Below, piece by piece: positions 13,828 through 57,685 of a DNA stretch of 64,000 bases. Source of the stretch: an uncultured Candidatus Saccharibacteria bacterium (GTDB lineage Bacteria; Patescibacteriota; Saccharimonadia; Saccharimonadales; JAGQNJ01); NCBI GenBank assembly GCA_964602865.1, contig CAZRSX010000004.1:20388-84387 (forward strand), written 5' to 3'. The position numbers and the translations under genes were made by a program. The notes beneath the pieces are model-generated. The model did no database searches, was not told the origin of the DNA, and saw only the letters and a list, made by a program, of their open reading frames with translations. The stretch's first letter is position 1; each line of letters opens with the position of its first letter.

Positions 13828-13846
13828 TGGTGGCCTCAAGGGGAAT
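13828..13846 (-). repeat. Copy A of the tRNA-Glu 3' end (att-like repeat)
   Basis: tggtggcctcaaggggaat versus the tRNA 3' end tggtgacctcaaggggaat (18/19). Confidence 0.6.
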
Positions 13847-13898: not shown

Positions 13899-14951
13899 TT
13901 AACGCCATCTTTTGGCTACTAGGAATCTGTTTCGGAGTGCCCGTGCCAGTATGAGCACGGCGCCGAGGAAGCTGGCCGCTACCGACTTGAGTGCGAGTGT
14001 CTGGTTGTCACCCGTGCTGGCCAGACCCTCTGATGTAAGCTGCACGGTAGCATTGTCGCTCGTAACATTGGCTGCGGCCATCATGATGGCCGGGTCAACG
14101 TACGCGGCGCCGGCACATTCAGCGGGAACAGCTGAGCCGTCATCTGCGGCAACGACCCGCCAGGTATAGCTGCCTTCTGTAAGATTGGTAAAGGTGTGGG
14201 CGGCGGTTGAGCCCGAAGCAACGCCGGGGACTGTGGCGCTCTGTGCTATAGTGGCAAAGTTGTCTTTGGAAAGCTGGAACTCCAGCGTACCGCTACTGCC
14301 GGTGCTGCTGGCAAAATGAACACTGGCTGGCAATGAGGTCTGACCCCCAGTCGGTACGGTGACCGAGTGATTAGCTGGCTGGAGGTTGGTGAGCGTCAGG
14401 GTCGGGGCATGGAAGATAATGAGATTGGTGATGGCTGTCGTTGTATAGTAGGGCCAACTGCTCGGAGGAGCTGGCGGCAAAACGCCATCTGCATAAGAGG
14501 TAAGCTCTATGTTGATCGGTATAAGGAGCGACGAGAGCCCGGGGTCAAAAGCCGGCGCGGTCAGGGTGAAGGGCTGCATAAATGGTGTGGGGGCAAGCAC
14601 GGTAGTAGCTATGTCTGGGTTGGTCGGCGATATAGATACCAGTGGTGAGGGAACAGCAATGGTATCTTGCGTAATGGTTAACTCAGCGGGGTAATTATCA
14701 GAATAATAGCTAACGTTATCACTTGTATATGCCGAGTTATAAACATATGCGGCAAGCTCTACCGAACTGCCTGCGGCCAGACACACGGTTTGCTCGTATA
14801 TGACATAATCTGGATCCTGGGCTTGCTCCGGCGTGAAGCCGATGTTCATGACAAGACCGTACTCATCAGTCTCAGCAAACGCCGTGGACTGCATACTTTG
14901 CTTGACCAATTGCTTGAAATCACCCCGCGGCAAAAAGTCTTGCAGCGGCAT
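13899..14951 (-). CDS. Surface protein with LAxTG-type sortase sorting signal
   Basis: The C-terminus has LASTGDN, then hydrophobic AASFLGAVLILA, then a basic tail RALRNRFLVAKRWR. No homology call is possible by eye. Confidence 0.55.
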   Translation of the reverse strand: MPLQDFLPRGDFKQLVKQSMQSTAFAETDEYGLVMNIGFTPEQAQDPDYVIYEQTVCLAAGSSVELAAYVYNSAYTSDNVSYYSDNYPAELTITQDTIAVPSPLVSISPTNPDIATTVLAPTPFMQPFTLTAPAFDPGLSSLLIPINIELTSYADGVLPPAPPSSWPYYTTTAITNLIIFHAPTLTLTNLQPANHSVTVPTGGQTSLPASVHFASSTGSSGTLEFQLSKDNFATIAQSATVPGVASGSTAAHTFTNLTEGSYTWRVVAADDGSAVPAECAGAAYVDPAIMMAAANVTSDNATVQLTSEGLASTGDNQTLALKSVAASFLGAVLILARALRNRFLVAKRWR

Positions 14952-14953
14952 GG

Positions 14954-15874
14954 TTATATAAACGACATGACGGCGTCGCTTTGGTAAGACCTCTCCAGAA
15001 AGGCTTCGTAGGCTTCTACGGCCTCTGCCCCAGAGAGCATGAGCGTGACATCCGCCTTGCAGAGCTGCAGCCGCGCAAACCGCTTCACCAGCGCGGTGTT
15101 ACTGTTTAGAAGCTGCTCGGCCTCGGTGTATTGGTCACGCGCAATGAGAGCGTGCACCATTTTTTCTATGACCAATACTCTCTGTTCATCACTCAGCGCA
15201 AGACCAAGGAGACTCTTGGCTGTCTTCCCGGCTACCTGATAGTCATGCGCAAAGAGTTCGCCTTCAAGTTTGGCGAACAGCAGGCTCGGCTCTTTGGGGT
15301 ACTGCTTGATAGCTTTTTTCAGCATTTGAGCGGTTTGCGTATAGCGGTACTGTTTGTCATCTGATTTACTAGCATGGTTGATATAAATGTCGGGGTAGGC
15401 CGCACGTTTTACAACGACGCTTCTTGTACGCGGGACGATTTTGTCGTGTATCGGAAATATGTAGTGAAACTCGGAGCGTTTAAAAATCAGGTCTCTCATG
15501 ATTGTCGTGCGGCTGGCGCCATTGGTTTCCGGTATCCAGTGCAAGGCTATGAGATTTGCATCCGTAAAGTTGTTCTTTTTGGCGCGCCCTAAGTTGGCAA
15601 GGCTGTCGGCATCAATAGAAAAATCGGCATCCCACTTTAAGCAATACTGCTGCGTAGCCTGCTGGGCACAAAAATTATAGGCTGCCGAGAAATCGTCAAT
15701 CCACTGAAAATCAAAAAAGTTTGTGGTGTACTTTTTGGCTATTTGTTTTGTTTTGTCGGTAGACCCAGTGTCCACGATGACCAACTCATCTGCCACCGGA
15801 AGGATCGAGGTGATAGCGTGCTCAAGACAAACCTCCTCGTTTTTAACAATCATACAAACTGATAATGTGGCCAT
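14954..15874 (-). CDS. Glycosyltransferase family 2 with C-terminal helical (TPR-like) region
   Basis: LSVCMIVKNEE...VIVDTGSTDKT...DADF signature. Start placed at the ATG 6 nt after TATACT (track ORF extends to 15907). Confidence 0.75.
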   Translation of the reverse strand: MATLSVCMIVKNEEVCLEHAITSILPVADELVIVDTGSTDKTKQIAKKYTTNFFDFQWIDDFSAAYNFCAQQATQQYCLKWDADFSIDADSLANLGRAKKNNFTDANLIALHWIPETNGASRTTIMRDLIFKRSEFHYIFPIHDKIVPRTRSVVVKRAAYPDIYINHASKSDDKQYRYTQTAQMLKKAIKQYPKEPSLLFAKLEGELFAHDYQVAGKTAKSLLGLALSDEQRVLVIEKMVHALIARDQYTEAEQLLNSNTALVKRFARLQLCKADVTLMLSGAEAVEAYEAFLERSYQSDAVMSFI

Positions 15875-15953
15875 ACGAGTAGTATAGCAATAGGGATTTG
15901 ATGCCACGATGAAATCAATCTAAAAAGCCCAGCGCACGGTGAGCGTTTTAGAT

Positions 15954-15972
15954 TGGTGACCTCATGGGGAAT
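15954..15972 (-). repeat. Copy B of the tRNA-Glu 3' end (att-like repeat)
   Basis: tggtgacctcatggggaat (18/19 to the tRNA 3' end), 125 nt from the gene. Confidence 0.6.
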
Positions 15973-16057: not shown

Positions 16058-16102
16058 CACCAGTGAAAATACCCGACACAGAGTCGGGCACTTTCACTGG
16101 TG
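16058..16102 (-). terminator. Long hairpin downstream of and overlapping the tRNA-Glu CCA end
   Basis: CACCAGTGAAA..CCGAC acaga GTCGG..TTTCACTGGTG. Confidence 0.45.
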
Positions 16103-16172
16103 ACCTCAAGGGGAATCGAACCCCTATTGCCAGGATGAAAACCTGGTGTCCTAACCGTTAGACGATGAGGCC
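16098..16172 (-). tRNA. tRNA-Glu (anticodon UUC), CCA encoded
   Basis: GGCCTCATCGTCTAACGGTTAGGACACCAGGTTTTCATCCTGGCAATAGGGGTTCGATTCCCCTTGAGGTCACCA. Manual cloverleaf; anticodon loop TTTTCAT. Confidence 0.9.
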
Positions 16173-16233: not shown

Positions 16234-16365
16234 CCTGGTGTCCTAGTCACCCGTCAATTTCCCTGAAATTGCGGTCGACCCCTCCCCTAGCTCGGTTGCA
16301 TTCGCAATCCGGGTTTCCGGCCTTGCGTACTGCCACTGGCAGTCCTCACATTAGACGATGAGGCC
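16234..16365 (-). other. Partial tRNA-Glu copy (positions about 1-31) interrupted by an approximately 97-nt GC-rich hairpin-rich insert
   Basis: ttagacgatgaggcc (16351-16365) and cctggtgtccta (16234-16245) are identical to the tRNA gene. They are separated by an insert with stems ACTGCC/GGCAGT, CCGG/CCGG and CAATTT/AAATTG. Confidence 0.4.
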
Positions 16366-16471
16366 TTGTTATCTGTTATAACCGCAGAATTGTATCATAA
16401 ATTACCCCATGAGAAAACCCCTGCTAACAGGGGTCTTCTTCATAGTGAGCGGTCAGTCTCTGTTTTGTTAC

Positions 16472-18178: not shown

Positions 18179-19447
18179 TTATTTCCTAGTTTTCTTAGCT
18201 TTAGCACGAGCTAACGCAAGACCGCCGACCGGCAGTATCGGTACCGCTCCAAAGAGCACAGCAACATTGCCATCAGTTTCAGCTTCCTCACCTGGACGGC
18301 CACCTGTAATTCTTATGTCCGCGTCCCGCGGTTCGGTTGGCTGTGGGTTCGTTTGTGGCGTAGATGTGGACACACTTGTTGAAGCAGTTTGTGGCGGATT
18401 GGTACTTGGTGGCACCGTACCAGTTGTTGCCGGTGTCGTTGGCGCTGGCGCAGGACGGGCAGTCGTAGTTGTAGTCGCAAGTGGAGGTACAGGGGGTCGT
18501 GGTTCATGATCAGTATAGCCATCGTCGTCAGTCGGCTGGCCTGGTTCACCTGGGCCAGGCCTGTCAGGCGTGCCAGGATCTTGATCGGCATCATCACCAG
18601 TTTGTTCTGGCAAATCACCATCGTCAAATTTATCTATTGTTGGTGGTTCTGGCTCACCTGGAGGGGTTGGAGGGGTTGGAGTAATAAGTTTCAGCTCGGG
18701 GTTGGCACAGTCTGCTCGCAGAGTCGCGTCCCAAACAATGTTGCCGTCTTCGTCTGCATAGATCCAGTATATGTCACCCGCGGCGGCTCTACGGCCACTG
18801 TTAACCGCAACAACTTCGCCGTCAACATAGTACGTAGTACCTTCAACGGTAACTGGAACAAGCGCTTGCACGGGGATGTAGCCCTCGCCATTCAATGCCC
18901 GTTCGAGGTCTTCTGATTGGCCTTCCATGGCTTCCTCAAGATTTTCACGAGCGGCAATCGCGCGTTCGCTATTACTTGCGTAAAATGCAGCGATTTCTTC
19001 TTGTGATTCAAGTACACCTAGCTCTTCGGTAGTAAACGCCTCTGCACCACGCTCAACTGGGTTACTTTCAAAGTCAACAGCTTCACCAGCAACTAGTTCA
19101 TCTGGTCCAAAACCCTGAAATCGCTCAAGAAGTTGATCCGCGAACTGCTCTGTGAATAATTGAGAAAGTTGAGCCTCACTAAGCTGACTTTCTGTAGTTG
19201 TCGTTGTGTCTGATTCTACAACCTCAGTCGTTGGGGCAGTCGTGGTGTCGTTCGCTGTCTCGGCTCCGGCGCCGCCACAAGCAGTCAGCGCAATAGCTGC
19301 CAAGCCGCCTGCAGCAATCATGCCACGTGCGCGCTCAATAAGACTTGGTTGTCGCTCGGGCTGTGGCGATACCACAACATCGCCTGCATACGGCAGGTGT
19401 GGTCGCGCTTCTTGGGTAGCTTGAACATTTTCAGGTAACATTGACAT
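18179..19447 (-). CDS. Thr/Pro-rich envelope protein (lipobox-like LTAC, C-terminal TM plus basic tail)
   Basis: AAIALTACGG; long PT-rich linker; C-terminal VLFGAVPILPVGGLALARAKAKKTRK. SD GAGGAGG upstream of the ATG. Confidence 0.5.
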   Translation of the reverse strand: MSMLPENVQATQEARPHLPYAGDVVVSPQPERQPSLIERARGMIAAGGLAAIALTACGGAGAETANDTTTAPTTEVVESDTTTTTESQLSEAQLSQLFTEQFADQLLERFQGFGPDELVAGEAVDFESNPVERGAEAFTTEELGVLESQEEIAAFYASNSERAIAARENLEEAMEGQSEDLERALNGEGYIPVQALVPVTVEGTTYYVDGEVVAVNSGRRAAAGDIYWIYADEDGNIVWDATLRADCANPELKLITPTPPTPPGEPEPPTIDKFDDGDLPEQTGDDADQDPGTPDRPGPGEPGQPTDDDGYTDHEPRPPVPPLATTTTTARPAPAPTTPATTGTVPPSTNPPQTASTSVSTSTPQTNPQPTEPRDADIRITGGRPGEEAETDGNVAVLFGAVPILPVGGLALARAKAKKTRK

Positions 19448-19485
19448 TATACTTCCACCTCCTCACAAGGTTTATTTACCGTTAC

Positions 19486-19514
19486 AATTTACCATAAGCT
19501 AGACTTGTTGTCAA
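19486..19514 (-). promoter_or_regulatory. Candidate promoter TTGACA-17-TAAATT for the 18179-19447 gene
   Basis: Reverse strand: TTGACAacaagtctagcttatggTAAATT. Confidence 0.5.
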
Positions 19515-19564
19515 GACTTTTTTACACAAAAATGACTATTTTACAATATTGCTTATGTTTTTAC

Positions 19565-19635
19565 AGAGACAGCGCCGGTTTCAGCATGATCTGACCCCTT
19601 ATACTGCTCTGGTAGTGCGGTGGATTTTCAAAGAT
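19565..19635 (-). repeat. R1: most decayed copy of the histidine-kinase 3' tail
   Basis: Reads ...LPEQYKGSDHAETGAVSVKT*. cccttatactgctct (19596-19610) is identical to 20014-20028. Confidence 0.45.
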
Positions 19636-19928
19636 TTTCTAGCGGAATACCGGTCTTTTCTGATACCTTGCGTGCCCATGCTAGCAGCTTCTCAAACTGG
19701 TTATCGCGTGCTGCTAGCTCTATTTCCGTATTTATCGATTCTGGCTACAAAGCCATCAATAGTATTGAGAAGCCTATTATGCGACTCTTTAAGCTGCGTT
19801 ATTTCCGATTCAATCGTATTGAATCGGCCATCTACCTGCTGCATAAATGCATGCAAGATGCCCGTTATCTCATCCGTCTGTTCTTTTAGAACAGTTTGTA
19901 GCTCTTTTTTAGTAACCGTGTCACTCAT
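19628..19928 (-). pseudogene. Small coiled-coil protein gene split by a +1 frame change
   Basis: Frame A: MSDTVTKKELQTVLKEQ...GFVARIDKY then GNRASSTR*. The adjacent frame continues (T)EIELAARDNQFEKLLAWARKVSEKTGIPLENL* (stop 19628-19630). Confidence 0.45.
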
Positions 19929-19973
19929 AGTACAGGCATTATACCATGCAGCGTGTGCCAACTTACTGTTGCT

Positions 19974-20085
19974 TTACGCCTTATTATCTGCGGTCTCGGC
20001 CTCATGCGCGGCACCCTTATACTGCTCTAGCGATAGCGGTTTTTTGGCGAAGTTAAAGCCGAAGGCGCTTCCCCTGCCCGTCAGT
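19974..20085 (-). pseudogene. R2: relic of a histidine-kinase 3' end
   Basis: Reads G(R)GSAFGFNFAKKPLSLEQYKGAAHEAETADNKA*. Positions 20035-20080 match 20826-20871 at 44/46 nt. Confidence 0.6.
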
Positions 20086-20506
20086 CATTCGACGAAAAAG
20101 GATTAATAACACGCAGACCCTTGAACATGCGGAAGTCTTTCGTATTATCGGTGGCAATAGTTGTTATGCCGGCCGCCATGGCGGTGGCAGCCAGATACGC
20201 ATCAAATATTTTATCTCCGGCAAGCCCGTTTTTACTGATCAGCTCTAGCGCAATCAAGTGTGTTTTGTAGTCTGGCGCAATGATCTGAAGGGCTTGCACG
20301 ATCCCATTAATTTCGCGTATGGCGGCCGCTGCAGACATGGGATTCGGGAACTTGCTGTGAGTCAAGACCCGAAGTGTTTCAAATATGTTCTGGTGCGCTA
20401 CGGCCAGACCCTTTTTCTGGTGTGCCAACAAAAATTTCCGAGCTGCCGCCTGTTTAGGGCTGTCGTTGTTGATGGCGTTAACCAGTATATTTGAATCAAC
20501 CAACAT
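20081..20506 (-). CDS. vapC: PIN-domain toxin VapC
   Basis: 141 aa with MLVDSNIL... PIN pattern. 4-codon overlap with the upstream antitoxin. Confidence 0.85.
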   Translation of the reverse strand: MLVDSNILVNAINNDSPKQAAARKFLLAHQKKGLAVAHQNIFETLRVLTHSKFPNPMSAAAAIREINGIVQALQIIAPDYKTHLIALELISKNGLAGDKIFDAYLAATAMAAGITTIATDNTKDFRMFKGLRVINPFSSND

Positions 20507-20735
20507 ACTTTTCGGGGTCCGGGTAATAGTCGCTGCGCGTCAGTTTGTCTGTGGGAGCACCCAAGTTATGTCCGTGGAACATGATTTTTACCTCGCGTTT
20601 GGCGGCGCGTTTTAGATAATCTTCCAGGGCTTGATTAAAAATAGCCTGTAGTGTGCTACCTTCATCAATGGCCCGCTTTTCGGCTATCTGTTTTAAGTTT
20701 TTATCAATCCGTAGTGTTGTGCGAGTTAGGCTCAT
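20496..20735 (-). CDS. vapB: Ribbon-helix-helix antitoxin (VapB-like)
   Basis: 79 aa. TLRIDKNLKQIAEKRAIDEGSTLQAIFNQALEDYL is RHH-like. Genetic context with vapC. Confidence 0.7.
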   Translation of the reverse strand: MSLTRTTLRIDKNLKQIAEKRAIDEGSTLQAIFNQALEDYLKRAAKREVKIMFHGHNLGAPTDKLTRSDYYPDPEKYVG

Positions 20736-20767
20736 ACGTAGGATATTAGCATACGTATGCTAATATG

Positions 20768-23017
20768 TCAACTATTATATTCTTTGGAATGGCTGCTTGT
20801 GGCGCCGTTGAGGTGTTCGGGTTCCAGCGGTTTTTTGGCGAAGTTAAAGCCGAAGGTGCTTCCCTTGCCCTCTTGCGTCTTGAATACAATGGCGCCGCCT
20901 TGCGCGACCACCACTTTTTTGGCCATAAAGAGGCCGAGCCCGGTACCGTCAGGGCGGGCCTTTTTAGCATTGCTGGCACGGTAAAACTTGCCAAACAGAT
21001 GGTGCTGCTCGCTCTTGGGCACGCCCAAGCCGTCATCGACCACTCGAAATTCGATCGAATCGCCCAGATCTTCCAGCTCTACCTTGATATGCCCCCCTGT
21101 TGGCGTGTAGTAAATAGCGTTATCGGCAAAGTTCATGATCACCTGGCGTATCTTGGTCTCATCAAGCATGAGGGCTGGGAAATTCTTTGGCTTCTGATAG
21201 GTCAGCTCCAGGCCGCGACCCTTCGCCGTCTCTGTTAATTGGGCGATCTCGCCCTCGACCACATCAGCCAAATTCGTCGGCTTGGCCTCTATGATGAACT
21301 TGCCGGTGCGCAAACGCGAGACGTTGAGCAGGTCGGCTATCAGATAGACCATGCGTTGCGAGCTGACAAAGGCCTGGTCAAGCAGCTCCTTTTGCTTGCT
21401 GTTGACCTTGCCCGCGTCGCCCTCCAGCACCATGCTGACATAGCCTTTTACAGAGGTCAGCGGCGTGCGTAACTGGTGCGATGCCATGCTGATGAAGTCG
21501 TCTTTGGTCTGGTCCATTGCTTTGAGCTTCTCGTTGGCTTTGCGCAAATTCCTGGTCGCTTCATCAACCTTGCCTTCCAATGTTTTCGCAAAGTTCTGAA
21601 TTTCCTCATATTGCAACGCGTTCTCGATTGCAATTGCCAGTTCGTTGGTGACAATTTCCATGGCGTCGGTGTCCTGCGAGTTGTAAATTGTACCGCTCTT
21701 TTTATTACCCAAAACCATATAGCCGACCCCTTCGCTGTTGGTGCTCTTCGTTATGCGGGCAACCACGGCAATATTTTCCTGGACCAGCAAAGCCTTTAGA
21801 TCCGTCTCTTTGGCTTCCAACAGATCTGTCAGCATGAGTTTTGTTTTGTTGCTCGATATGTAGCTCCGCATTTGGTCAATCACTTTTTCGGTAACCTCTG
21901 TATTCTGAGTATGTAAAACGCGTACACCTTGCTCCTCGTCAATCAGGGCAAAGGTGCAAAATTCGGACCGTAGGTATTTCTCTATCACACCAGCTGACTT
22001 TGCCAGCAGTTTCTCCAGCTCAATCGTGGAAACAATGGCCTGGTTAAACTCATCCAGAAGGTCTTTGGTATCATAGGCATCTCTGTAAAAAAGTTTGTTG
22101 GTAACACGATCAAAGAATCTTTTTGCCGGTAAGTATGTCAATGCGAGCACTACAGTGGTTATCACATAAAAGAGCCTCAAAAAGTCATCATTGGCACCTA
22201 GTCGAGATAAATAGCCGGATGCTACCAAGAGAGCAGCAGCAGCAGCAGCAGCCAGAGAGCCAAGAGATAATACGTACCCCAGTGTGCGAGCAACAACTAA
22301 GCGAAGGTCAAACAGCCTGTGTCGAGTGATAGCATAGGCCATACCAATTACCCAAAAAGCCAAAGATAACGATCCGATTCCTGCAAGATTATAATTTCCC
22401 AGTATCGGCAAAACCGCCGTACACACCAATACAATAGGTATAGTAATTATAAAGGTAACAATTATTGTATCAATCTGCGCCTTAAGTATGCCGTTTAGCT
22501 TAAAATGTCCTCGTATAAGTAAGCTGGATATCAAACAGAATTGTACAAACAGCGAAAGAAAATAATACACAGACAATATACCGAAAGTGTTTACGTATAC
22601 TCCCTGGTTCAACTCTACTGAGCTAACTACTAATGGAGTAAGTGATGCCACCCAAGCAAAGCAAAGTGCTAGTAGTCCTATTATGGACATTTTTTTAGAT
22701 AATCTGCGTCCAGCTATGCAAATGATGAACACATAAATCGACAACATCGCTAGGCCGCCAGTCACTAACGTTACCCTATTGGATAAAAGTGCGGCATTAT
22801 TCGATAAACTAGTATCGTTGGCGAAATAATTAGTGGTTAGCCATGTTGACATACTCAATGAAACAGCAAAATAGGCTTGGTTCAGTTTTTGTCGAGGATT
22901 TCTCAGCAATACCAATAAGCCGATTACAAGTAGCACCGCCAGAACAATTACTAATAAAACTGTATACAAATCGAGCATTTCCATAGTAATTATGCTCGTG
23001 CCTATCTTATCAGTCAA
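20768..23017 (-). CDS. Sensor histidine kinase with N-terminal multi-TM (7TM-type) input region, GAF-like middle, HisKA and HATPase_c
   Basis: About 8 hydrophobic helices in the first 300 aa. H-box SHQLRTPLTSVKGY, N-box DNAIYYT, G-boxes DDGLGVP and GTGLGL. TTG start abuts the ThiF stop (ATG alternatives at 22984/22978). Confidence 0.9.
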   Translation of the reverse strand: MTDKIGTSIITMEMLDLYTVLLVIVLAVLLVIGLLVLLRNPRQKLNQAYFAVSLSMSTWLTTNYFANDTSLSNNAALLSNRVTLVTGGLAMLSIYVFIICIAGRRLSKKMSIIGLLALCFAWVASLTPLVVSSVELNQGVYVNTFGILSVYYFLSLFVQFCLISSLLIRGHFKLNGILKAQIDTIIVTFIITIPIVLVCTAVLPILGNYNLAGIGSLSLAFWVIGMAYAITRHRLFDLRLVVARTLGYVLSLGSLAAAAAAALLVASGYLSRLGANDDFLRLFYVITTVVLALTYLPAKRFFDRVTNKLFYRDAYDTKDLLDEFNQAIVSTIELEKLLAKSAGVIEKYLRSEFCTFALIDEEQGVRVLHTQNTEVTEKVIDQMRSYISSNKTKLMLTDLLEAKETDLKALLVQENIAVVARITKSTNSEGVGYMVLGNKKSGTIYNSQDTDAMEIVTNELAIAIENALQYEEIQNFAKTLEGKVDEATRNLRKANEKLKAMDQTKDDFISMASHQLRTPLTSVKGYVSMVLEGDAGKVNSKQKELLDQAFVSSQRMVYLIADLLNVSRLRTGKFIIEAKPTNLADVVEGEIAQLTETAKGRGLELTYQKPKNFPALMLDETKIRQVIMNFADNAIYYTPTGGHIKVELEDLGDSIEFRVVDDGLGVPKSEQHHLFGKFYRASNAKKARPDGTGLGLFMAKKVVVAQGGAIVFKTQEGKGSTFGFNFAKKPLEPEHLNGATSSHSKEYNS

Positions 23018-24085
23018 TTATAGATTGCTAGCAACCTGAGTACGATACTCTACACGAGCTTGTCTTTGTTTGTCGCTATAGCTAGCTGACGGGTTTAATC
23101 CTAAAGTATTACGAGCCAATATGCGCAAGACCCGCATCGTAGATACTAGCCTGGAGCGCTTAGTAACAAAATCTTCACCTTGACTGGGATTAACGCAGTG
23201 TACTTCTGGATAAAAATGCGGTTTACCGTAGCGTTTGTCACCTAGGGTCAAAAGTTTCTCGAACTCATCCATTGCTAGATCCGTTGCGTTAAAAACGCTC
23301 CGTAAAGCAGTAGGCAGAGAAACGCCTTTCTTTTGAGTAGCCAGCAACGTTTGAAAATCTGTCGTTAGTGGAATATTCGGAATAGTGGGTAGCTGAAAAC
23401 CTGTAATTTTTTTATTGTATTCTTCGGCTGTTTGGTCTGGTCTGCCACCCGTAGAGTGCTCAAAGGTATGTTCTAAATCATTTGGGTCAAAAGTCGTGAC
23501 CATACCGCCACGCTCGATATCTGTTGCACAAATCACGAAACGACCAAACCTACGAGCAGTACGGTGATACATTAGCATGAGATGAGGTTCGGTAATTTCT
23601 ATTTCATCGAATCCAACCGTTAAGCCCCTGTTCTTTGCGTCGTATCCTAAAAACTCATCAACGTTATGCTCTTGCACTCCTTCACTATAAACCCGCACTT
23701 CGGCAGTAGGATTGTGTTGAGTTATCAACTCCGCGACAACATCAGCTTTTGGACGCCCTACGTCATCTGGTGTGAATATTGGGATACGACCAACGTTGCT
23801 CGGTTCGACCGTTTCAATATCGGCAATACTAAAATCACCTACGCCCTCTTTGGCTAACATTACAGCAAGTGTCGCACCGCCACCACCGCAGCCCGCTATA
23901 CGAGCGGATGAGTCAATAAACTTCTGGCGCAAATCCTCTGTATAAAACCCCATAGCCCTATCAAAGTATAGTGAGCATGGATCGTCCATCAGTACCTCAC
24001 CGGCTGGGGGGTCTATCAAGTGGCGGCCCTGCAGAGTATATGAAGCTTTTTCTATAGTATCGATAAATTCAGTCATTTCACTCAC
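23018..24085 (-). CDS. ThiF/MoeB/HesA-family E1-like adenylyltransferase with about 140-aa C-terminal extension
   Basis: IAGCGGGGATLAVMLAKEGVGDFSIADIETVEPSNVGR matches the GxGxxG...D.D.V..SN..R signature. Confidence 0.8.
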   Translation of the reverse strand: MSEMTEFIDTIEKASYTLQGRHLIDPPAGEVLMDDPCSLYFDRAMGFYTEDLRQKFIDSSARIAGCGGGGATLAVMLAKEGVGDFSIADIETVEPSNVGRIPIFTPDDVGRPKADVVAELITQHNPTAEVRVYSEGVQEHNVDEFLGYDAKNRGLTVGFDEIEITEPHLMLMYHRTARRFGRFVICATDIERGGMVTTFDPNDLEHTFEHSTGGRPDQTAEEYNKKITGFQLPTIPNIPLTTDFQTLLATQKKGVSLPTALRSVFNATDLAMDEFEKLLTLGDKRYGKPHFYPEVHCVNPSQGEDFVTKRSRLVSTMRVLRILARNTLGLNPSASYSDKQRQARVEYRTQVASNL

Positions 24086-30642: not shown

Positions 30643-31014
30643 ATGGCACACAAAATCCTTATCATCGAAGACGACCAAGCTATCTCACAGATGTATCGTA
30701 TTAAGTTTGAGAGTGAGGGGTATAGTGTTGAGACGGCTGAGAATGGGAAGTTAGGCTTAGCGTTAGCAGAGACTATGAAGCCAGACATTATTCTGTTGGA
30801 CTTAATGATGCCCGAGATGACTGGTGATGAGATGTTGAAGAAACTGAGAGCTACCACATGGGGTAAGACCATCAAGGTGGTGATATTGACGAATATGGGG
30901 GAGGCCGAGATAACCGAAAACGTTTTGGAGCTGGGCGTCGACGGTTTTATCGTCAAGGCGCAGTACACTCCTACTCAGGTGGTCGAGAAGCTCAAACAGA
31001 TCCTGACCGAGTAA
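30643..31014 (+). CDS. Single-domain response regulator (receiver only), RR-1
   Basis: ILIIEDD...DIILLDLMMPEMTG...VVILTN...KA. N-terminal 81 codons are identical in DNA to RR-3. Confidence 0.9.
   Translation: MAHKILIIEDDQAISQMYRIKFESEGYSVETAENGKLGLALAETMKPDIILLDLMMPEMTGDEMLKKLRATTWGKTIKVVILTNMGEAEITENVLELGVDGFIVKAQYTPTQVVEKLKQILTE
30661..30903 (+). repeat. 243-bp perfect direct repeat, copy 1
   Basis: Base-for-base identical to 35470-35712 (checked by eye line by line). Confidence 0.95.
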
Positions 31015-35037: not shown

Positions 35038-35433
35038 ATGACAACACAAAAAATTACCGTTGTTGAAGACGAGCCCGCTATTTGCAACATGTATAAAATG
35101 AAGCTTGCGAGTTCTGGGTTTGATGTCAGCGTTGCGTTTAATGGCAAAGAAGGCCTTGAGGTCGTCGAAAAACACAAGCCCACCCTCATATTGCTGGATA
35201 TCAAAATGCCGGTCATGAGCGGCGATGAAATGCTTGAGAAGCTCCGCCAAACAGATTGGGGTGCCGATATTCGCGTGATTATTTTGACCAACATCAGCCG
35301 CGATGAGGCGCCGCATAACTTACGACTGCTGAATATTGACCGCTACATTGTCAAAGCCCACTACACACCGACACAAGTGATTGATATCGTCAACGAAGTC
35401 CTTGGCCTGCCAAATAAGCCGCCGCGCCGATAA
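35038..35433 (+). CDS. Single-domain response regulator, RR-2
   Basis: ITVVEDE...TLILLDIKMPVMSG...VIILTN...KA. Confidence 0.9.
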   Translation: MTTQKITVVEDEPAICNMYKMKLASSGFDVSVAFNGKEGLEVVEKHKPTLILLDIKMPVMSGDEMLEKLRQTDWGADIRVIILTNISRDEAPHNLRLLNIDRYIVKAHYTPTQVIDIVNEVLGLPNKPPRR

Positions 35434-35451
35434 CATGATAAGATTAAACAT

Positions 35452-35823
35452 ATGCCAGCAAAAGTAGCCATCATCGAAGACGACCAAGCTATCTCACAGA
35501 TGTATCGTATTAAGTTTGAGAGTGAGGGGTATAGTGTTGAGACGGCTGAGAATGGGAAGTTAGGCTTAGCGTTAGCAGAGACTATGAAGCCAGACATTAT
35601 TCTGTTGGACTTAATGATGCCCGAGATGACTGGTGATGAGATGTTGAAGAAACTGAGAGCTACCACATGGGGTAAGACCATCAAGGTGGTGATATTGACG
35701 AATATGGGGGAGCAAGAAATCCCTGACGACGTTAAAAAACTCGGTGTCGTGGCAGTGATTTTGAAGGCCGACATGACCCCGCGCCAAGTCGCGGAACTCG
35801 TCAAAACACAACTCAAAACATAG
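35452..35823 (+). CDS. Single-domain response regulator, RR-3
   Basis: Receiver motifs; shares the 243-bp identical block with RR-1, then diverges. Confidence 0.9.
   Translation: MPAKVAIIEDDQAISQMYRIKFESEGYSVETAENGKLGLALAETMKPDIILLDLMMPEMTGDEMLKKLRATTWGKTIKVVILTNMGEQEIPDDVKKLGVVAVILKADMTPRQVAELVKTQLKT
35470..35712 (+). repeat. 243-bp perfect direct repeat, copy 2
   Basis: Identical to 30661-30903. Confidence 0.95.
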
Positions 35824-39502: not shown

Positions 39503-39579
39503 GGGCCATTAGCTCAGCTGGTTAGAGCACCTGCCTCTTAAGCAGGGTGTCCTGGGTTCGAGTCCCAGATGGCCCTCCA
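39503..39579 (+). tRNA. tRNA-Lys (anticodon CUU), CCA encoded
   Basis: GGGCCATTAGCTCAGCTGGTTAGAGCACCTGCCTCTTAAGCAGGGTGTCCTGGGTTCGAGTCCCAGATGGCCCTCCA. Confidence 0.9.
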
Positions 39580-39779
39580 TCCTCCGTCGCAAATCCTTTT
39601 AAGGATTAGCTATGGAGGATTTTGGTTTTATGTGGGGCTTGATCCAAGACACGCCTCAAGGGTGTCTTGGGGGAGAACAGCCAGTGGCTGTTCGGACGGA
39701 AACCTTCCGATGGCAACTGGTTTGCCAATCGTGAAGTTTTGGGGTCGCGGAACGTGACCGAGTCCCAGATGGCCCTCCA
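39580..39779 (+). repeat. 179-nt hairpin-rich insert followed by a second perfect 21-nt copy of the tRNA-Lys 3' end
   Basis: cgagtcccagatggccctcca occurs at 39559-39579 and 39759-39779 (exactly 200 bp apart). Insert stems: AATCCTT/AAGGATT, CAAGACAC/GTGTCTTG, ACAGCCA/TGGCTGT. Confidence 0.7.
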
Positions 39780-54307: not shown

Positions 54308-55954
54308 CTACAAAATTTCTTTCAATCTCATGGTGTCAGCGTCGCTCCACTCTGCAGGGTTCAGCACATTCGCCCAACCGTCTATAACCTTTTCGCCGTA
54401 TTTATGCCCATGACCGTCTGGAACGCCGTAGGCCAACGGCAGATCAATCACCACTTGCCAAAACGTGACAAATGGATACCACCGAGTGCTGGCTATAACG
54501 TCATTACCCCTGGCTTCTTTTAGCCAGTCCGGTTTATGCAAGATGAGATTTGGACTCCACCATACGACTGGGTCTGAGGCATGCTGAAAGTAAACGACCC
54601 GTGTGCTGCCCCATTCGCTGGACGGTTTGTCCAGATCCGAGGGGTAGTCGGCAAATCTAATGAGACTGCCCTGCTGATAGATCGGTTGCCACTCCGGAGA
54701 GCCAGCATCGCGGTTCGCGACGAAATCCGACCAAACATGCCCGGAATTTGGCGGACCGACAAACATCGCCCCGTCCGTCCGATTGGCCAAATCGGCTGAC
54801 CCGCTAAAGGCACCTTCGGCGCCGAAAGCACCAAGACTCTCGCCGTAAACTACCAGCTTGGGACGATTGGCCGGATCAAGTTTGCTCCACCAATCATAGG
54901 TCGCGTTAAAAAGTGCCTTGCCGGCAGCCTGAGCCTTTTCTTTGTCGGCCAAAAACGAAATCCAGCTGGGCAGGTATGAATACTGCATGCCGACCGTTGC
55001 CGAATCGCCACCGTACATATACTCGAGTGCCGCTACGGACTGCGGATTTATCCCACCGCTGCCCGTAGAGTTGGCTACTAAAATTACGCCGCGGCTGCTG
55101 GCATTAGTGCGCTCCAATTCCCAAATGACCTGCTCAACTTGAGCCTGTTGATTGTCAGCAGACTTTATACCAGAATAGATTCGAATCGGCTGCTTTACTG
55201 ACTGACCCTTAAATGTAGCGATATCTTCCTTTTTAGTAGTTTTGCCAATAAAATCCCGGCCCGCTTTACCTAAACTTTCCCAAGCGACTTGCGAACCGGA
55301 ACCTCCGGATACTTCGGGTATAGTAAGCTGTTCAATTCCTTCGGACGTACCGGTGTTTTGGTAGCCAAACAAGGTGTTAGAAACCGACAATGCCACTCTG
55401 AACACAACACCATCAATAAAAAGTATCAGGAGGATGGCCGTCAGTATGGCGCCGAGCCGCCTGGCGGTTTTGGGCGAGGTTTTCTTGGCAAACTTAGCAG
55501 CTAGTTTGCGGGAAAGCTTCAAAATCTTCCGGCTCATGCCAACTAACAAATAGGCTACAAAAAAGGCGGTGATGACAATAATTGCCGGCTCAAAAAAGTC
55601 AGCCTTTTGCGAATCGGTGATAACGCGGATCTCGTTCTGCCATTGGTAGCCTTTGACAATAAAAAATACTGTCAGCAGGCCTAAACTGACGTGCGCAGCC
55701 AGTCGCCAATTGCGGGAATACTTATTATTGAGATACTTGGCATTCAATGACCGGGAAACATTGCCAATCAGCGATCCAAAGCCATAGCCGATTGCCAATG
55801 AAATGCCGCTGGCAATTCCTTGCATGATTGAAGTACGGGGTAACAAAGAAGGTGTCAGCGACAAACAAAAGAATAGCACGCCGCCAATCAGGCCGGCATA
55901 CCTCGGCTGCTTAGCCTCAAACCAGTTGTCTATAAAGTTTTTTTTCTTACTCAT
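54308..55954 (-). CDS. Membrane-anchored alpha/beta-hydrolase family protein (Abhydrolase_9-like)
   Basis: N-terminal multi-TM; GESLG nucleophile elbow; paralogue of the next gene. Confidence 0.6.
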   Translation of the reverse strand: MSKKKNFIDNWFEAKQPRYAGLIGGVLFFCLSLTPSLLPRTSIMQGIASGISLAIGYGFGSLIGNVSRSLNAKYLNNKYSRNWRLAAHVSLGLLTVFFIVKGYQWQNEIRVITDSQKADFFEPAIIVITAFFVAYLLVGMSRKILKLSRKLAAKFAKKTSPKTARRLGAILTAILLILFIDGVVFRVALSVSNTLFGYQNTGTSEGIEQLTIPEVSGGSGSQVAWESLGKAGRDFIGKTTKKEDIATFKGQSVKQPIRIYSGIKSADNQQAQVEQVIWELERTNASSRGVILVANSTGSGGINPQSVAALEYMYGGDSATVGMQYSYLPSWISFLADKEKAQAAGKALFNATYDWWSKLDPANRPKLVVYGESLGAFGAEGAFSGSADLANRTDGAMFVGPPNSGHVWSDFVANRDAGSPEWQPIYQQGSLIRFADYPSDLDKPSSEWGSTRVVYFQHASDPVVWWSPNLILHKPDWLKEARGNDVIASTRWYPFVTFWQVVIDLPLAYGVPDGHGHKYGEKVIDGWANVLNPAEWSDADTMRLKEIL

Positions 55955-55966
55955 GTTTACTCCTCT

Positions 55967-57685
55967 TTAATTGGGCGCTAAATATTCATCCAGCACTGGC
56001 TGTAAATGCTCGCGTAATTTTTGGGTTTGTTCGTTAGACCAGTTATCCGGGTTTACAACTCCAACCCAGCCGTCGACGACGTTCAGGCCATACCGATGGC
56101 CATGCCCGGAGGGTGCGCCAGAGGCAAACTGCAGATCCAACAATTGCTGCCAGAACGTCACGACGGGCATCCAGTGCATGCTGGGCGAAACATCCGGGCC
56201 GCGAGGATCATTCAAAAACTCTGGCCTCGAGTAAAGTGTTCGTATGCTAAACCAGCCAACGGGATCGCTGGAATTCGCCAAATATACAATCCGCTTGTCC
56301 TGCCAATCGCCAGCAGGAACGTTCAAATCGGCTGGCTCTATGGCAAATCTGAAGTTTTTGCCCTCGTCAATTACAGGCAGCCAGACTGGTGAAGCAGCGG
56401 CTCGGCTGCCTATCAACTCTTGTCGTATTTTATTAAAGAAAGTCGGCCCTATCATCAGTACGCCGGTAACTTTATCAACCATGTCATCCGCACTGTCAAA
56501 GGCCGCCTCCGTGGACGAAGATCCAAGACTTTCGCCTGCTACAAATATCTTGGGCCGCTCGGCTTCGGGCAGGCTGTTTACTTTATCCACTATGGTATTA
56601 ACGATTTTCCTGCCTGCTTCGTTGCCCACCCCCGGGTTGGTAAACATGGTAGTAGCGCTCGGTGCATAGGAATATTGCAGCGCCACCTGAGCAGTGTCTC
56701 CGCCCAGTATGTACTCTGGTGCTGCTGCATTGACCGGCGGTATTTCGCCGTTGCCGCTGGGGGTCTGGATAAATATCGCCTTGCGCGCGTAAGCATTGGT
56801 TCGGTCCAGTTCTTTTAAGATCAGATCAATACGCCCGTCAATAGTGTCGGCGGATCTGAGTCCGCCATAAATACGTATCGGCTGTAGTGCCGAGGAATTG
56901 CCCAAAAAGCTATTTATGTCTTCGCTAGAAGGTCCGCCGGCAATAAATTCTCGGCCTTTTGCTCCCAACTGTTCCCAGGTGATAAACGATTCCGGGCTGC
57001 CGGAACGCAACGGGGTTGTTGGCTGGGCCAGGTCAGTTTGCACAGTGTCATTCGCAATGCCTGCAGCATAATCAATTGCGGCAAAAAGATTCTGAGCCAG
57101 TCCGCCCAAAAGCACGTAGACTACAAAACCCAGGGCCAGCGTGTAGCCAATCAATTTTGCAGCCATCTCGGGCATTATCTTCTTTGCCAACAGGGCAGTA
57201 AGATGGAAGAACCCCTTGACTGCCCGACCCGCCACAATTAAAAACAGGGCAAAAATAATCGATACGGCAACCATGCTGGAAATTTGCCACGGCTCTTTGA
57301 TCTCCATGGACATGAGCTGCCTCAGCTGCTTATCCCAGTGTTCGCCGGCAAAAACGAAGGCTATAACCACTAATGTGCCGCCTACATAAAGAGCCCGCCA
57401 AAGTGTGGTTTTTGTTGCGTCTTTCAGCCCCAACCTATAAGCGTAACGCTTCATAAGTTTATAAGTGCAAGCACCTATACCATATCCAATCGCAGCGGTT
57501 AAGCCTGCAAGCAATCCCTGCAAAACCCAGCCTCTCGGTATTAAGGTAGGCGTCATGGCCAGAGCAAAGAAGGCTACACCACCAACCAGTCCACCATAAT
57601 TGAGCGGCCTAAACAGCCAGCGGCCCAGCCCTGCTAAAGCTAGGTAAAATCTTTTTTTAATCCCTGGACTTTCGATGTTGACCAC
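55967..57685 (-). CDS. Membrane-anchored alpha/beta-hydrolase family protein (paralogue)
   Basis: Same architecture; GESLGS; shared blocks YSYxPS, GHGHxYG. Confidence 0.6.
   Translation of the reverse strand: MVNIESPGIKKRFYLALAGLGRWLFRPLNYGGLVGGVAFFALAMTPTLIPRGWVLQGLLAGLTAAIGYGIGACTYKLMKRYAYRLGLKDATKTTLWRALYVGGTLVVIAFVFAGEHWDKQLRQLMSMEIKEPWQISSMVAVSIIFALFLIVAGRAVKGFFHLTALLAKKIMPEMAAKLIGYTLALGFVVYVLLGGLAQNLFAAIDYAAGIANDTVQTDLAQPTTPLRSGSPESFITWEQLGAKGREFIAGGPSSEDINSFLGNSSALQPIRIYGGLRSADTIDGRIDLILKELDRTNAYARKAIFIQTPSGNGEIPPVNAAAPEYILGGDTAQVALQYSYAPSATTMFTNPGVGNEAGRKIVNTIVDKVNSLPEAERPKIFVAGESLGSSSTEAAFDSADDMVDKVTGVLMIGPTFFNKIRQELIGSRAAASPVWLPVIDEGKNFRFAIEPADLNVPAGDWQDKRIVYLANSSDPVGWFSIRTLYSRPEFLNDPRGPDVSPSMHWMPVVTFWQQLLDLQFASGAPSGHGHRYGLNVVDGWVGVVNPDNWSNEQTQKLREHLQPVLDEYLAPN

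Follow-up and report, generated by a model that had tools for sequence, protein, structure and literature searches.

In Escherichia coli, prophage e14 (and phage 21) integrates in the 3' end of icd: an alternative 3' end keeps the gene functional, and the native end is found downstream as a pseudo-copy. In the vap regions of Dichelobacter nodosus and in tycheposons, copies of tRNA 3' ends separate tandem inserts, and vapBC-type modules lie near att. The minimal mobile elements of Neisseria carry no mobility genes and are exchanged by transformation, with homologous recombination in conserved flanks. Insertion-duplication is familiar chiefly from laboratory work, where the homologous segment measures at least 150 nt; to our knowledge, no natural population of promoter-plus-gene minicircles with conserved gene ends has been described. 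For units devoid of an integrase, a general model is the accretion of cis-mobilizable elements (CIMEs), with ICESt1 and ICESt3 at fda of Streptococcus thermophilus (PMC5704250). The locus reported here lies in a 64,000-nt stretch of DNA, called the window, from an uncultured Candidatus Saccharibacteria bacterium (contig CAZRSX010000004.1, positions 20,388 to 84,387): a sensor histidine kinase gene is followed by a vapBC toxin-antitoxin module, a copy of the kinase 3' end, a small gene and a further copy. It is very probably the product of serial insertion, and the order and polarity of the insertions can be read with the same confidence.

Set beside these systems, the locus may be said to resemble CIME accretion, e14 in icd or laboratory insertion-duplication, with units that appear minimal, recombinase-less, self-expressed and stacked at the terminus of a protein gene. 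As with CIMEs, integrase-less units are bounded by copies of the target gene 3' end, the target stays intact and the elements stack. Unlike CIMEs, the units are of 0.4–0.8 kb, consist of one promoter and one gene or operon and show no remains of genes for integration or transfer; their junctions appear too tight for units left by deletion, the events do not share a crossover position, repeats reach at least 130 nt, the replacement end is a diverged allele, and no cognate integrase was found among the families listed. The e14 prophage measures about 15 kb, encodes an integrase and crosses over at a fixed site; the present units are very small, recombinase-less and stacked. Vap regions and tycheposons extend over kilobases and encode integrases, in contrast to the minimal units described here, whose target is a kinase gene. 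Neisseria minimal mobile elements replace each other by double crossover between two flanking genes, and neither duplicate a gene end nor stack. Insertion-duplication, like the events proposed here, duplicates a homology segment by a single crossover, and needs only RecA and DNA uptake. Integron cassettes share arrayed single-gene units, toxin-antitoxin modules in the cargo, an implied circular intermediate and the newest unit nearest the insertion point; unlike them, the present units have no attC hairpin, intI, attI or Pc, have promoters of their own, and are bounded by a repeat that copies the target gene.

Coordinates are positions of the window, and all genes of the kinase locus are on the minus strand. 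In gene direction the order is: ThiF-like gene, kinase, live tail A, vapB, vapC, tail B, small gene, tail C, hyp422 promoter, hyp422, PKD-domain gene. The series kinase tail, VapBC, tail, small gene, tail, described in an earlier note made from the letters of the DNA, is therefore correct. Related loci are numbered L001–L177. All of the 80 related loci retrieved with the kinase belong to Saccharibacteria or Patescibacteria metagenome-assembled genomes (MAGs), and the ThiF-kinase-hyp-PKD synteny is widespread among relatives. The features are as follows.

23018–24085, minus strand: ThiF-like gene, native 5' flank of the kinase
20768–22984, minus strand: sensor histidine kinase, 7TM-GAF-HisKA-HATPase_c, 738 aa from MEMLD (Pfam; identical protein P0001; conserved synteny); the open reading frame (ORF) as called mechanically extends to 23017
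20826–20870, minus strand: core copy A (GKGSTFGFNFAKKPL), in the last HATPase_c strand, identity block of the vapBC insertion (43/45 against 20035–20079)
20768–20825, minus strand: live tail A (EPEHLNGATSSHSKEYNS, then stop), a diverged kinase-tail allele, read as having come with the vapBC unit (L082 homology; tail comparison; promoter scan)
20743–20771, minus strand: vapBC promoter (TTGACA-17-TAATAT with TG) and overlapping palindrome (promoter scan)
20496–20735, minus strand: vapB antitoxin, 79 aa, ribbon-helix-helix (RHH_1, below cut-off; PHROG)
20081–20506, minus strand: vapC PIN-domain toxin, 141 aa, full length (PF01850)
19975–20079, minus strand: relic 2, 105 nt, made of core copy B (20035–20079) and tail B (SLEQYKGAAHEAETADNKA, then stop) (self-BLAST; L082 comparison)
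19629–19946, minus strand: small-gene unit, with extended -10 box (TGGTATAAT, 19938–19946), ATG at 19926–19928 and frameshifted coiled-coil gene (family P0242–P0249)
19553–19628, minus strand: relic 3 (tail C), 76 nt, read as the native kinase terminus (KSTALPEQYKGSDHAETGAVSVKT, then stop) (stop position against orthologs; shuffle statistics)
19454–19522, minus strand: native intergenic promoter of hyp422 (84% identity to L082 6578–6646; four-genome alignment; promoter scan)
18179–19447, minus strand: hyp422, the next gene (conserved synteny)

The core of the kinase end at 20826–20870 is repeated at 20035–20079 with 43 of 45 positions identical, the longest exact run being of 31 nt; the pair ranks third in a self-BLAST of the whole 64 kb (E 1.6e-9). 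The earlier note had counted 44/46 between 20035–20080 and 20826–20871: the repeat stands, while the count over that span is 43/46. The core homology ends 1 nt short of the vapC stop codon, relic 2 begins 1 nt past the stop, and relic 2 translates as TGRGSAFGFNFAKKPLSLEQYKGAAHEAETADNKA / GRGSAFGFNFAKKPLSLEQYKGAAHEAETADNKA, each followed by a stop. The third tail, relic 3, is more diverged. It shares with tail B the 15 identical nucleotides which had already been noticed (19596–19610 = 20014–20028), inside a 26-nt repeat of 81% identity. In 5000 shuffles, its similarity to tail B is significant both as nucleotide local score (p ~4e-4) and as protein (p ~2e-4), and so is that to the tail of the closest ortholog (p ~6e-4 to 1e-3); no significant match to live tail A was found in the shuffles (p 0.3–0.8). 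All three tails fit the consensus FAKKPLLPE[HN][YF]KG of 120 orthologs. YKG is kept in both relics, and the live tail has LNG; tail A is recognisable as a kinase tail, since its KKPLEPEH aligns to the closest ortholog, L082, and its ..NGA corresponds to ..KGA. With a self-BLAST E of 1.6e-9 and p values of 2e-4 to 1e-3 for relic 3, the tails can be taken as true copies of the kinase 3' end, as first proposed.

The copies are not uniform along their length. Against 43/45 identities in the core, only 30 of about 60 nt are identical between tails A and B (Fisher p 1.4e-7). Because the core is 96% and the tails about 50% identical, tails A and B are, judged from their sequences, two distinct allelic forms of the kinase end that meet at a conserved core. 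Allelic tails point to incoming DNA that brought its own kinase end, a highly probable reading, and not to a target-site duplication; the contrast between core and tails, together with repeat lengths of 45–130 nt, rules out both transposase target-site duplication and local duplication. The rare motif FGFNF, common to copies A and B, suggests a closely related donor. The Pfam HATPase_c match stops at residue 726 of 749: the tails lie past the catalytic domain and vary freely across orthologs. The stop codon of the live kinase, TGA, sits within the vapBC -35 hexamer TTGACA.

Three allelic tails in direct orientation, around a common, conserved and recombination-prone core, could also be seen as silent cassettes for switching the kinase C-terminus, as in pilin-type variation. 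Recombination between direct repeats, however, deletes the cargo rather than reversibly switching tails, relic 3 is decayed, relatives have no such cassettes, and the free variation of tails beyond the catalytic domain also speaks against it; this explanation is extremely improbable. Two further candidates were discarded. Integron attC sites are not seen: the cores have neither inverted repeat or dyad symmetry nor hairpin, and DNA folds of cores and relics are no better than those of shuffles (z -0.5 to +2.0). For a diversity-generating retroelement, no RVT is present among the listed window families, and the two core mismatches are A in the gene and G in the copy, the reverse of the polarity of such elements.

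Comparison with relatives lacking VapBC at this position, suggested in the earlier note, was possible in three lineages, where the kinase is directly followed by the next gene. In L082 (65% aa identity) the order is kinase, 103 nt, hypothetical gene, PKD gene, an empty site; empty sites are also found in L172–175 (59%, gap of 135 nt) and in L170/171 (58%, gap of 105 nt). VapBC or an adjacent relic occurs in none of 80 species-representative loci, except for L049, a relic case described below. When aligned to L082 by BLASTN, the window matches in three parts: the live kinase end down to 20805, relic 2 (77% identical to the L082 kinase end) and the promoter at 19454–19522 (84%). From the relic 3 stop to this conserved promoter block there are 31 nt, as compared to 30 nt from the L082 kinase stop to the same block, and in a four-genome alignment the TAA of relic 3 falls in the stop-codon column of the orthologs. 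Because of this match of the stop position, relic 3 is taken as the native kinase end, still on its native 3' flank. The live kinase, on the other side, keeps its native 5' flank (ThiF). About 1.3 kb has therefore been inserted within the last ~100 nt of the kinase gene. Of the two repeats, the proximal one, that of vapBC, reaches 96% identity and goes with an intact cargo; the distal one reaches 81% and goes with a frameshifted cargo. The vapBC unit, nearest the gene, is younger, on account of both its higher repeat identity and its intact cargo.

The same observations bear on an alternative already named in the earlier note, that the relics are what remains of tandem kinase paralogs, whose bodies were deleted or overwritten by vapBC and the small gene. 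Tandem kinases do exist: a distant Saccharibacteria genome (L068:6013–10445, 38% identity) contains two full-length tandem paralogs, of 723 and 754 aa. Yet the three closest lineages have a single kinase, native flanks are kept on the 5' side of the live gene and on the 3' side of relic 3, and each relic begins 0–1 nt past a cargo stop codon. Uniform decay cannot give a 96% core beside tails of about 50%; the pattern recurs at tRNAs, where decay of tandem genes is no option; and at least six events would be needed, against two for insertion. Tandem decay is consequently very unlikely. Empty sites, native flanks at both ends and the contrast between core and tails argue for serial insertion, as the earlier note had preferred.

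An assembly artefact was also considered, in which alleles or strain variants of the kinase end, or a minicircle of vapBC, would have been joined one after another during metagenome assembly. The DNA comes from a MAG, and the nearest kinase is 65% identical; each exact protein is present once in 15 billion sequences. The only identical DNA is L083, a k=31 Logan contig which begins inside the repeat, breaking exactly at the 31-nt exact repeat. L083 is thus uninformative as to an empty site. From the repeat it continues through relic 2, the small gene and relic 3 into the next gene, 100% identical to the window; its reads may be those of the MAG. The break implies that reads contain both left-hand junctions. 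An exact repeat of 31 nt is, moreover, spanned by ordinary reads and by larger k-mers, and the same architecture is found in unrelated assemblies (L049, L085/86, L126, L149) and at tRNAs with empty-site controls. An artefact of this kind has little probability.

With serial insertion preferred, the history of the locus would be the following. In the ancestral state the kinase would have ended in KKPL.PEQYKGSDHAETGAVSVKT and a stop, with the next gene about 100 nt further. In a first event, a unit of about 0.42 kb, in which tail B was followed by an extended -10 promoter and the gene of a 91-aa coiled-coil protein, would have recombined inside the EQYKG stretch. The kinase would have stayed intact, with tail B as its new end; behind it would have come the cargo and, displaced, the native end, now relic 3. 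In a second, younger event, a 0.79-kb unit (the kinase 3' fragment 'GRGSAFGFNFAKKPL + tail A', vapBC promoter/operator, vapB and vapC) would have recombined inside the conserved GKGSTFGFNFAKKPL stretch. The kinase would since end in tail A, and tail B, its earlier functional end, would have become relic 2. As the insertion points lie in the last strand of the ATPase domain, only events bringing a replacement end would preserve kinase function and survive.

The younger unit looks functional, judging from the PIN domain and its acidic residues, the gene overlap and the palindrome over a near-consensus promoter. VapC scores 51 bits with the PIN domain PF01850 of Pfam (E 2.2e-13, cut-off 23.6); residues D4, E43, the D of 'FDAY' and the D of 'TDN' are present, and conserved in homologs. 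The homologs are 537, the closest being 77% identical and in an unrelated context. VapB, whose gene overlaps vapC by 11 nt, matches RHH_1 with an E of 0.007, under the Pfam cut-off, and the PHROG Arc-like repressor at 1.5e-5. A perfect 24-nt palindrome (20743–20766) overlaps the vapBC -10 box, and is likely to be the VapB operator, as predicted from its position; promoter and palindrome are kept in L081 and L176, which hold gene pairs of like size order (75–79 aa, then 142–143 aa). The -10 box ends 7 nt ahead of the ATG: the vapBC mRNA is probably leaderless. The closest vapBC at nucleotide level, in L081 (73%), is in an unrelated context, and its homology begins at the -35 box. In L081 vapBC precedes a kinase-like gene; a general link between vapBC and kinases was rejected, the window kinase having no tblastn match anywhere in that locus.

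The older unit carries the small gene of the earlier note, which as an ORF spans 19701–19961. The ORF does not show the gene in its original form: a +1 frameshift, due to an extra G at 19725/19726, has broken what was a 91-aa gene, whose true stop is the TGA at 19629–19631. Relic 3 begins at the next base; nucleotide homology to the relatives L084–86 extends to 19632. Members of the family (small86) are coiled-coil proteins of 91–106 aa, ending in GIPLENL; no known family was found for them in Pfam or PHROGs, where the matches were coiled-coil noise only. In both inserted units, and likewise in L085, L099, L115 and L126, the -10 box ends 6–9 nt ahead of the ATG and no Shine-Dalgarno sequence is present, which suggests that the cargo genes are probably expressed from leaderless mRNAs.

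Independent cases support the earlier suggestion of a recurrent route; they are found at a kinase, at a Kelch-type gene and at many tRNAs, two of them in the window. In L049, another Saccharibacteria MAG, the end of the orthologous kinase (2030–2158) is repeated at 2531–2660 with 93.8% identity, over at least 130 nt and up to the contig end. The two copies enclose a promoter and a gene for a 76-aa coiled-coil protein, the second copy starting 3 nt past the stop of this gene; a 1-nt deletion in the gene-proximal copy frameshifts the kinase end. The duplication starts about 160 nt ahead of the stop. The 76-aa gene has no BLASTP match with the small gene of the window, and hhalign gives a probability of 2.7%. 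L049 is thus an independent insertion at the orthologous kinase. In L149 (1505–2043) the end of a Kelch/Peptidase_S74 gene, stop codon included, is repeated around a member of the small-gene family, and the relic starts at the stop codon of the cargo. One further candidate, a relic after ORF 55967–57685 of the window, was rejected: it is the C-terminus of a tandem Abhydrolase_9 paralog.

The small-gene family itself was scanned for flanking direct repeats, the maximum of a reversed-sequence control being used as threshold. Of 85 further loci, 71 could be analysed, and repeats above the control maximum were found in 14. The repeats mostly correspond to the 3' end of tRNA-Gln or of tRNA-Glu, in units that measure 377–675 nt. 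Units with target-end copies are those of L085:1743–2208, L086, L126:2931–3414, L115, L099, L090, L095, L112, L088/L089 and L149:1505–2043; L099 has two in series. Their targets are tRNA-Gln, tRNA-Glu, an unidentified 29-mer and the Kelch-type gene, at least four different sequences. At tRNAs the unit is anti-oriented, and the relic overlaps its -35 region. The special link to two-component genes, proposed in the earlier note, is not supported, most targets being tRNA genes. Beside one family member, in L084 (900–1300), several 5' and 3' tRNA-like fragments surround tRNA-Gln; one of them is preceded by the motif GGGGTCGCGGAACGTGAC, also present in the tRNA-Lys-linked element described below.

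tRNA genes were surveyed in L001–L177 and the window: 83 tRNAs in 1.34 Mb, whose 3' 18 nt were searched with up to 2 mismatches within 4 kb. A copy of the own 3' end is found downstream of 17 tRNAs and upstream of none; copies of the 5' end are never downstream, and are upstream in five tRNAs. The repeats are of 18–31 nt with sharp ends, and at several tRNAs exact identity covers only 13–21 nt. In the window, tRNA-Glu(ttc) (16098–16172, minus strand) is followed by a 125-nt non-coding insert, a 3' 19-nt copy (15954–15972), two genes and a copy of the native 3' end, the distal part being composed as follows.

14954–15907: GT2 glycosyltransferase, between tRNA-Glu relics
13899–14951: 350-aa gene, between tRNA-Glu relics
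13828–13846: native tRNA-Glu 3' end copy with native terminator, the most distal relic

The empty site is seen in L172, where PKD gene, tRNA-Glu, terminator and pyruvate kinase follow each other with nothing between. In the window the distal copy is joined to the native flank, so the logic is the same as at the kinase. The native tRNA-Glu promoter with the first 15 nt of the tRNA (16351–16439) lies about 177 nt from the live tRNA. At the second tRNA, tRNA-Lys (39503–39579), the last 21 nt are copied at 100%, 180 nt downstream.

Between tRNA-Lys with its terminator and the copy of the last ~21 nt, which starts in the T-loop, a conserved, hairpin-rich element of about 110 nt is found (39580–39779). 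The element is also present at L052, L057, L059 and L066 (after tRNA-Lys), at L071 (after tRNA-Glu) and at 16235–16350 of the window; five genomes have exactly the same T-loop junction for the tRNA-Lys-linked element. At the 5' end of the element the T-arm is repeated in inverted orientation, and this copy pairs with the displaced tRNA end. Compensatory changes in three base pairs, along with G-U wobbles, suggest an RNA: a new structured RNA is one possible reading, a mobile element without coding capacity another. The tRNA-linked inserts have no match in Rfam, and find no mention in work on tRNA introns of Patescibacteria.

As to the mechanism, the duplicated homology segment lies directly on both sides of the insert, as in Campbell insertion-duplication. 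We infer from this structure that a circular or tandemly repeated molecule, carrying target end, promoter and cargo, joined the chromosome by one crossover. The enzymology would be that of a Campbell-type crossover made by the general homologous recombination of the host, on circular or tandemly repeated DNA taken up by natural transformation, the gene-terminus copy serving as portable homology. Once integrated, the flanking repeats would allow excision as a circle, or transfer as an insert with homology arms; VapBC would penalise loss of its unit. Cultivated Saccharibacteria are reported to be naturally competent, and to integrate DNA by homologous recombination (PMC10633639).

An alternative is site-specific accretion: integrase-less, att-flanked units, CIME-like or mobilised in trans, would be inserted by a trans-encoded tyrosine or serine recombinase acting on an attP that includes the kinase 3' end, the newest unit coming next to the gene. 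It finds support in the 3'-end bias at tRNAs (17/83 against 0 in the controls), in the shortness of tRNA repeats (18–31 nt) and their sharp ends, in the identity of the T-loop junction across five genomes for the tRNA-Lys-linked element, and in repeats of 13–21 nt, too short for RecA. The position of the newest unit nearest the gene is also what the published accretion model predicts (PMC5704250). Several results tell against it. The families listed for ORFs of 100 aa or more in the window include no integrase, resolvase, transposase or reverse transcriptase, and neither do the 25 families seen most often in 144 neighbours of the small-gene family; the units themselves contain only vapBC or only the small gene. 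Viral contigs yielded no relative, and a phage origin was discarded. The core has no inverted-repeat organisation. The two window events have separate identity blocks (20826–20870 versus 20014–20028/19596–19610), and in each of the three kinase events the duplicated segment begins at another codon, while site-specific accretion would use one crossover site per target. Remnants of mobility genes are absent and, in all four protein-gene cases, the relic lies 0–3 nt from the cargo stop, a tight junction which argues against the units being deletion remnants of larger elements. Finally, one small-gene cargo family occurs at four or more unrelated target sequences, which would require several specificities in genomes of about 1 Mb. 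Site-specific accretion is, on this evidence, a possible but rather doubtful explanation.

Non-overlapping identity blocks, differing duplication starts and a cargo family shared by unrelated targets indirectly favour homology instead, as does the existence of both 3'- and 5'-end duplications. Some observations weigh in the opposite direction. Exact identity extends over 31 nt in the vapBC event and, at present, over 15 nt in the older one, which is little for RecA. A strong tRNA 3'-end bias with sharp T-loop junctions is the classical signature of tyrosine integrases. The simple Campbell model gives no account of relics starting so regularly at, or just past, the cargo stop codon, nor of how a kinase end first came to be joined to a cargo in one molecule. 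Flanking repeats are absent at both vapBC relatives examined, L081 and L176. An empty chromosome accompanied by a free circle of 791 bp would give the same de Bruijn graph; against this, the contig includes both copies without a break, so that the assembly word was presumably longer than the exact repeat of 31 nt. On balance, the choice just tips towards RecA-type rather than site-specific recombination. Taken as a whole, two successive insertion-duplication events by a homology route are the best explanation, whose chances are about even.

A wider proposal may be advanced tentatively. Saccharibacteria, and perhaps other Patescibacteria, might gain genes through recombinase-independent cassettes: probably leaderless promoter-plus-gene units, joined to a copy of a conserved gene terminus (a tRNA 3' end, or the last 25–55 codons of a protein gene) as portable homology. 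Spreading by natural transformation as minicircles or repeat-flanked inserts, they would enter by single crossover, repair the target with the gene end that they bring, and stack, the latest arrival lying closest to the gene. The candidate structured RNA of ~110 nt in tRNA T-loops would be a second class of cargo. Patescibacteria have tiny genomes with few recognisable mobile elements, and their acquisition of accessory and defence genes is little understood; literature searches gave nothing specific on such stacking in Saccharibacteria or Patescibacteria. The kinase locus offers a dated, polarised record, with native end, older unit and younger unit, and indicates that a gene which looks essential can take up single-gene units within its end and remain intact. 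The signature is frequent, affecting about one tRNA in five in the sampled loci, and two other protein genes. If the route is homology-driven, it would be a simple, general mechanism of gene gain for competent, recombinase-poor bacteria, and could also offer a ready-made design for targeted insertion in cultivable Saccharibacteria. A site-specific route would instead call for a recombinase acting in trans, so far unrecognised and unusually flexible in its targets. Annotators of these genomes should note that a short 'orphan' frame behind a small gene may be what is left of the upstream gene's end.

The signature does not extend to the receiver genes of the window, for which it had also been claimed. 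The two genes (30643–31014 and 35452–35823, 123 aa each, 4.8 kb apart) are intact paralogs which share their 5' 299 nt at 91.6% identity, with a sharp boundary and no 3'-end relic. They keep different, paralog-typical C-termini (see also 35038–35433); judging from this arrangement, the repeat is probably due to partial gene conversion, or to recombination between paralogs. The scan for tail copies also brought up the tandem Abhydrolase_9 paralogs at 54308–57685, of 548 and 572 aa, whose C-termini are alike. A transfer-messenger RNA gene is located at 2547–2953 on the minus strand (Rfam RF00023, 65.6 bits).

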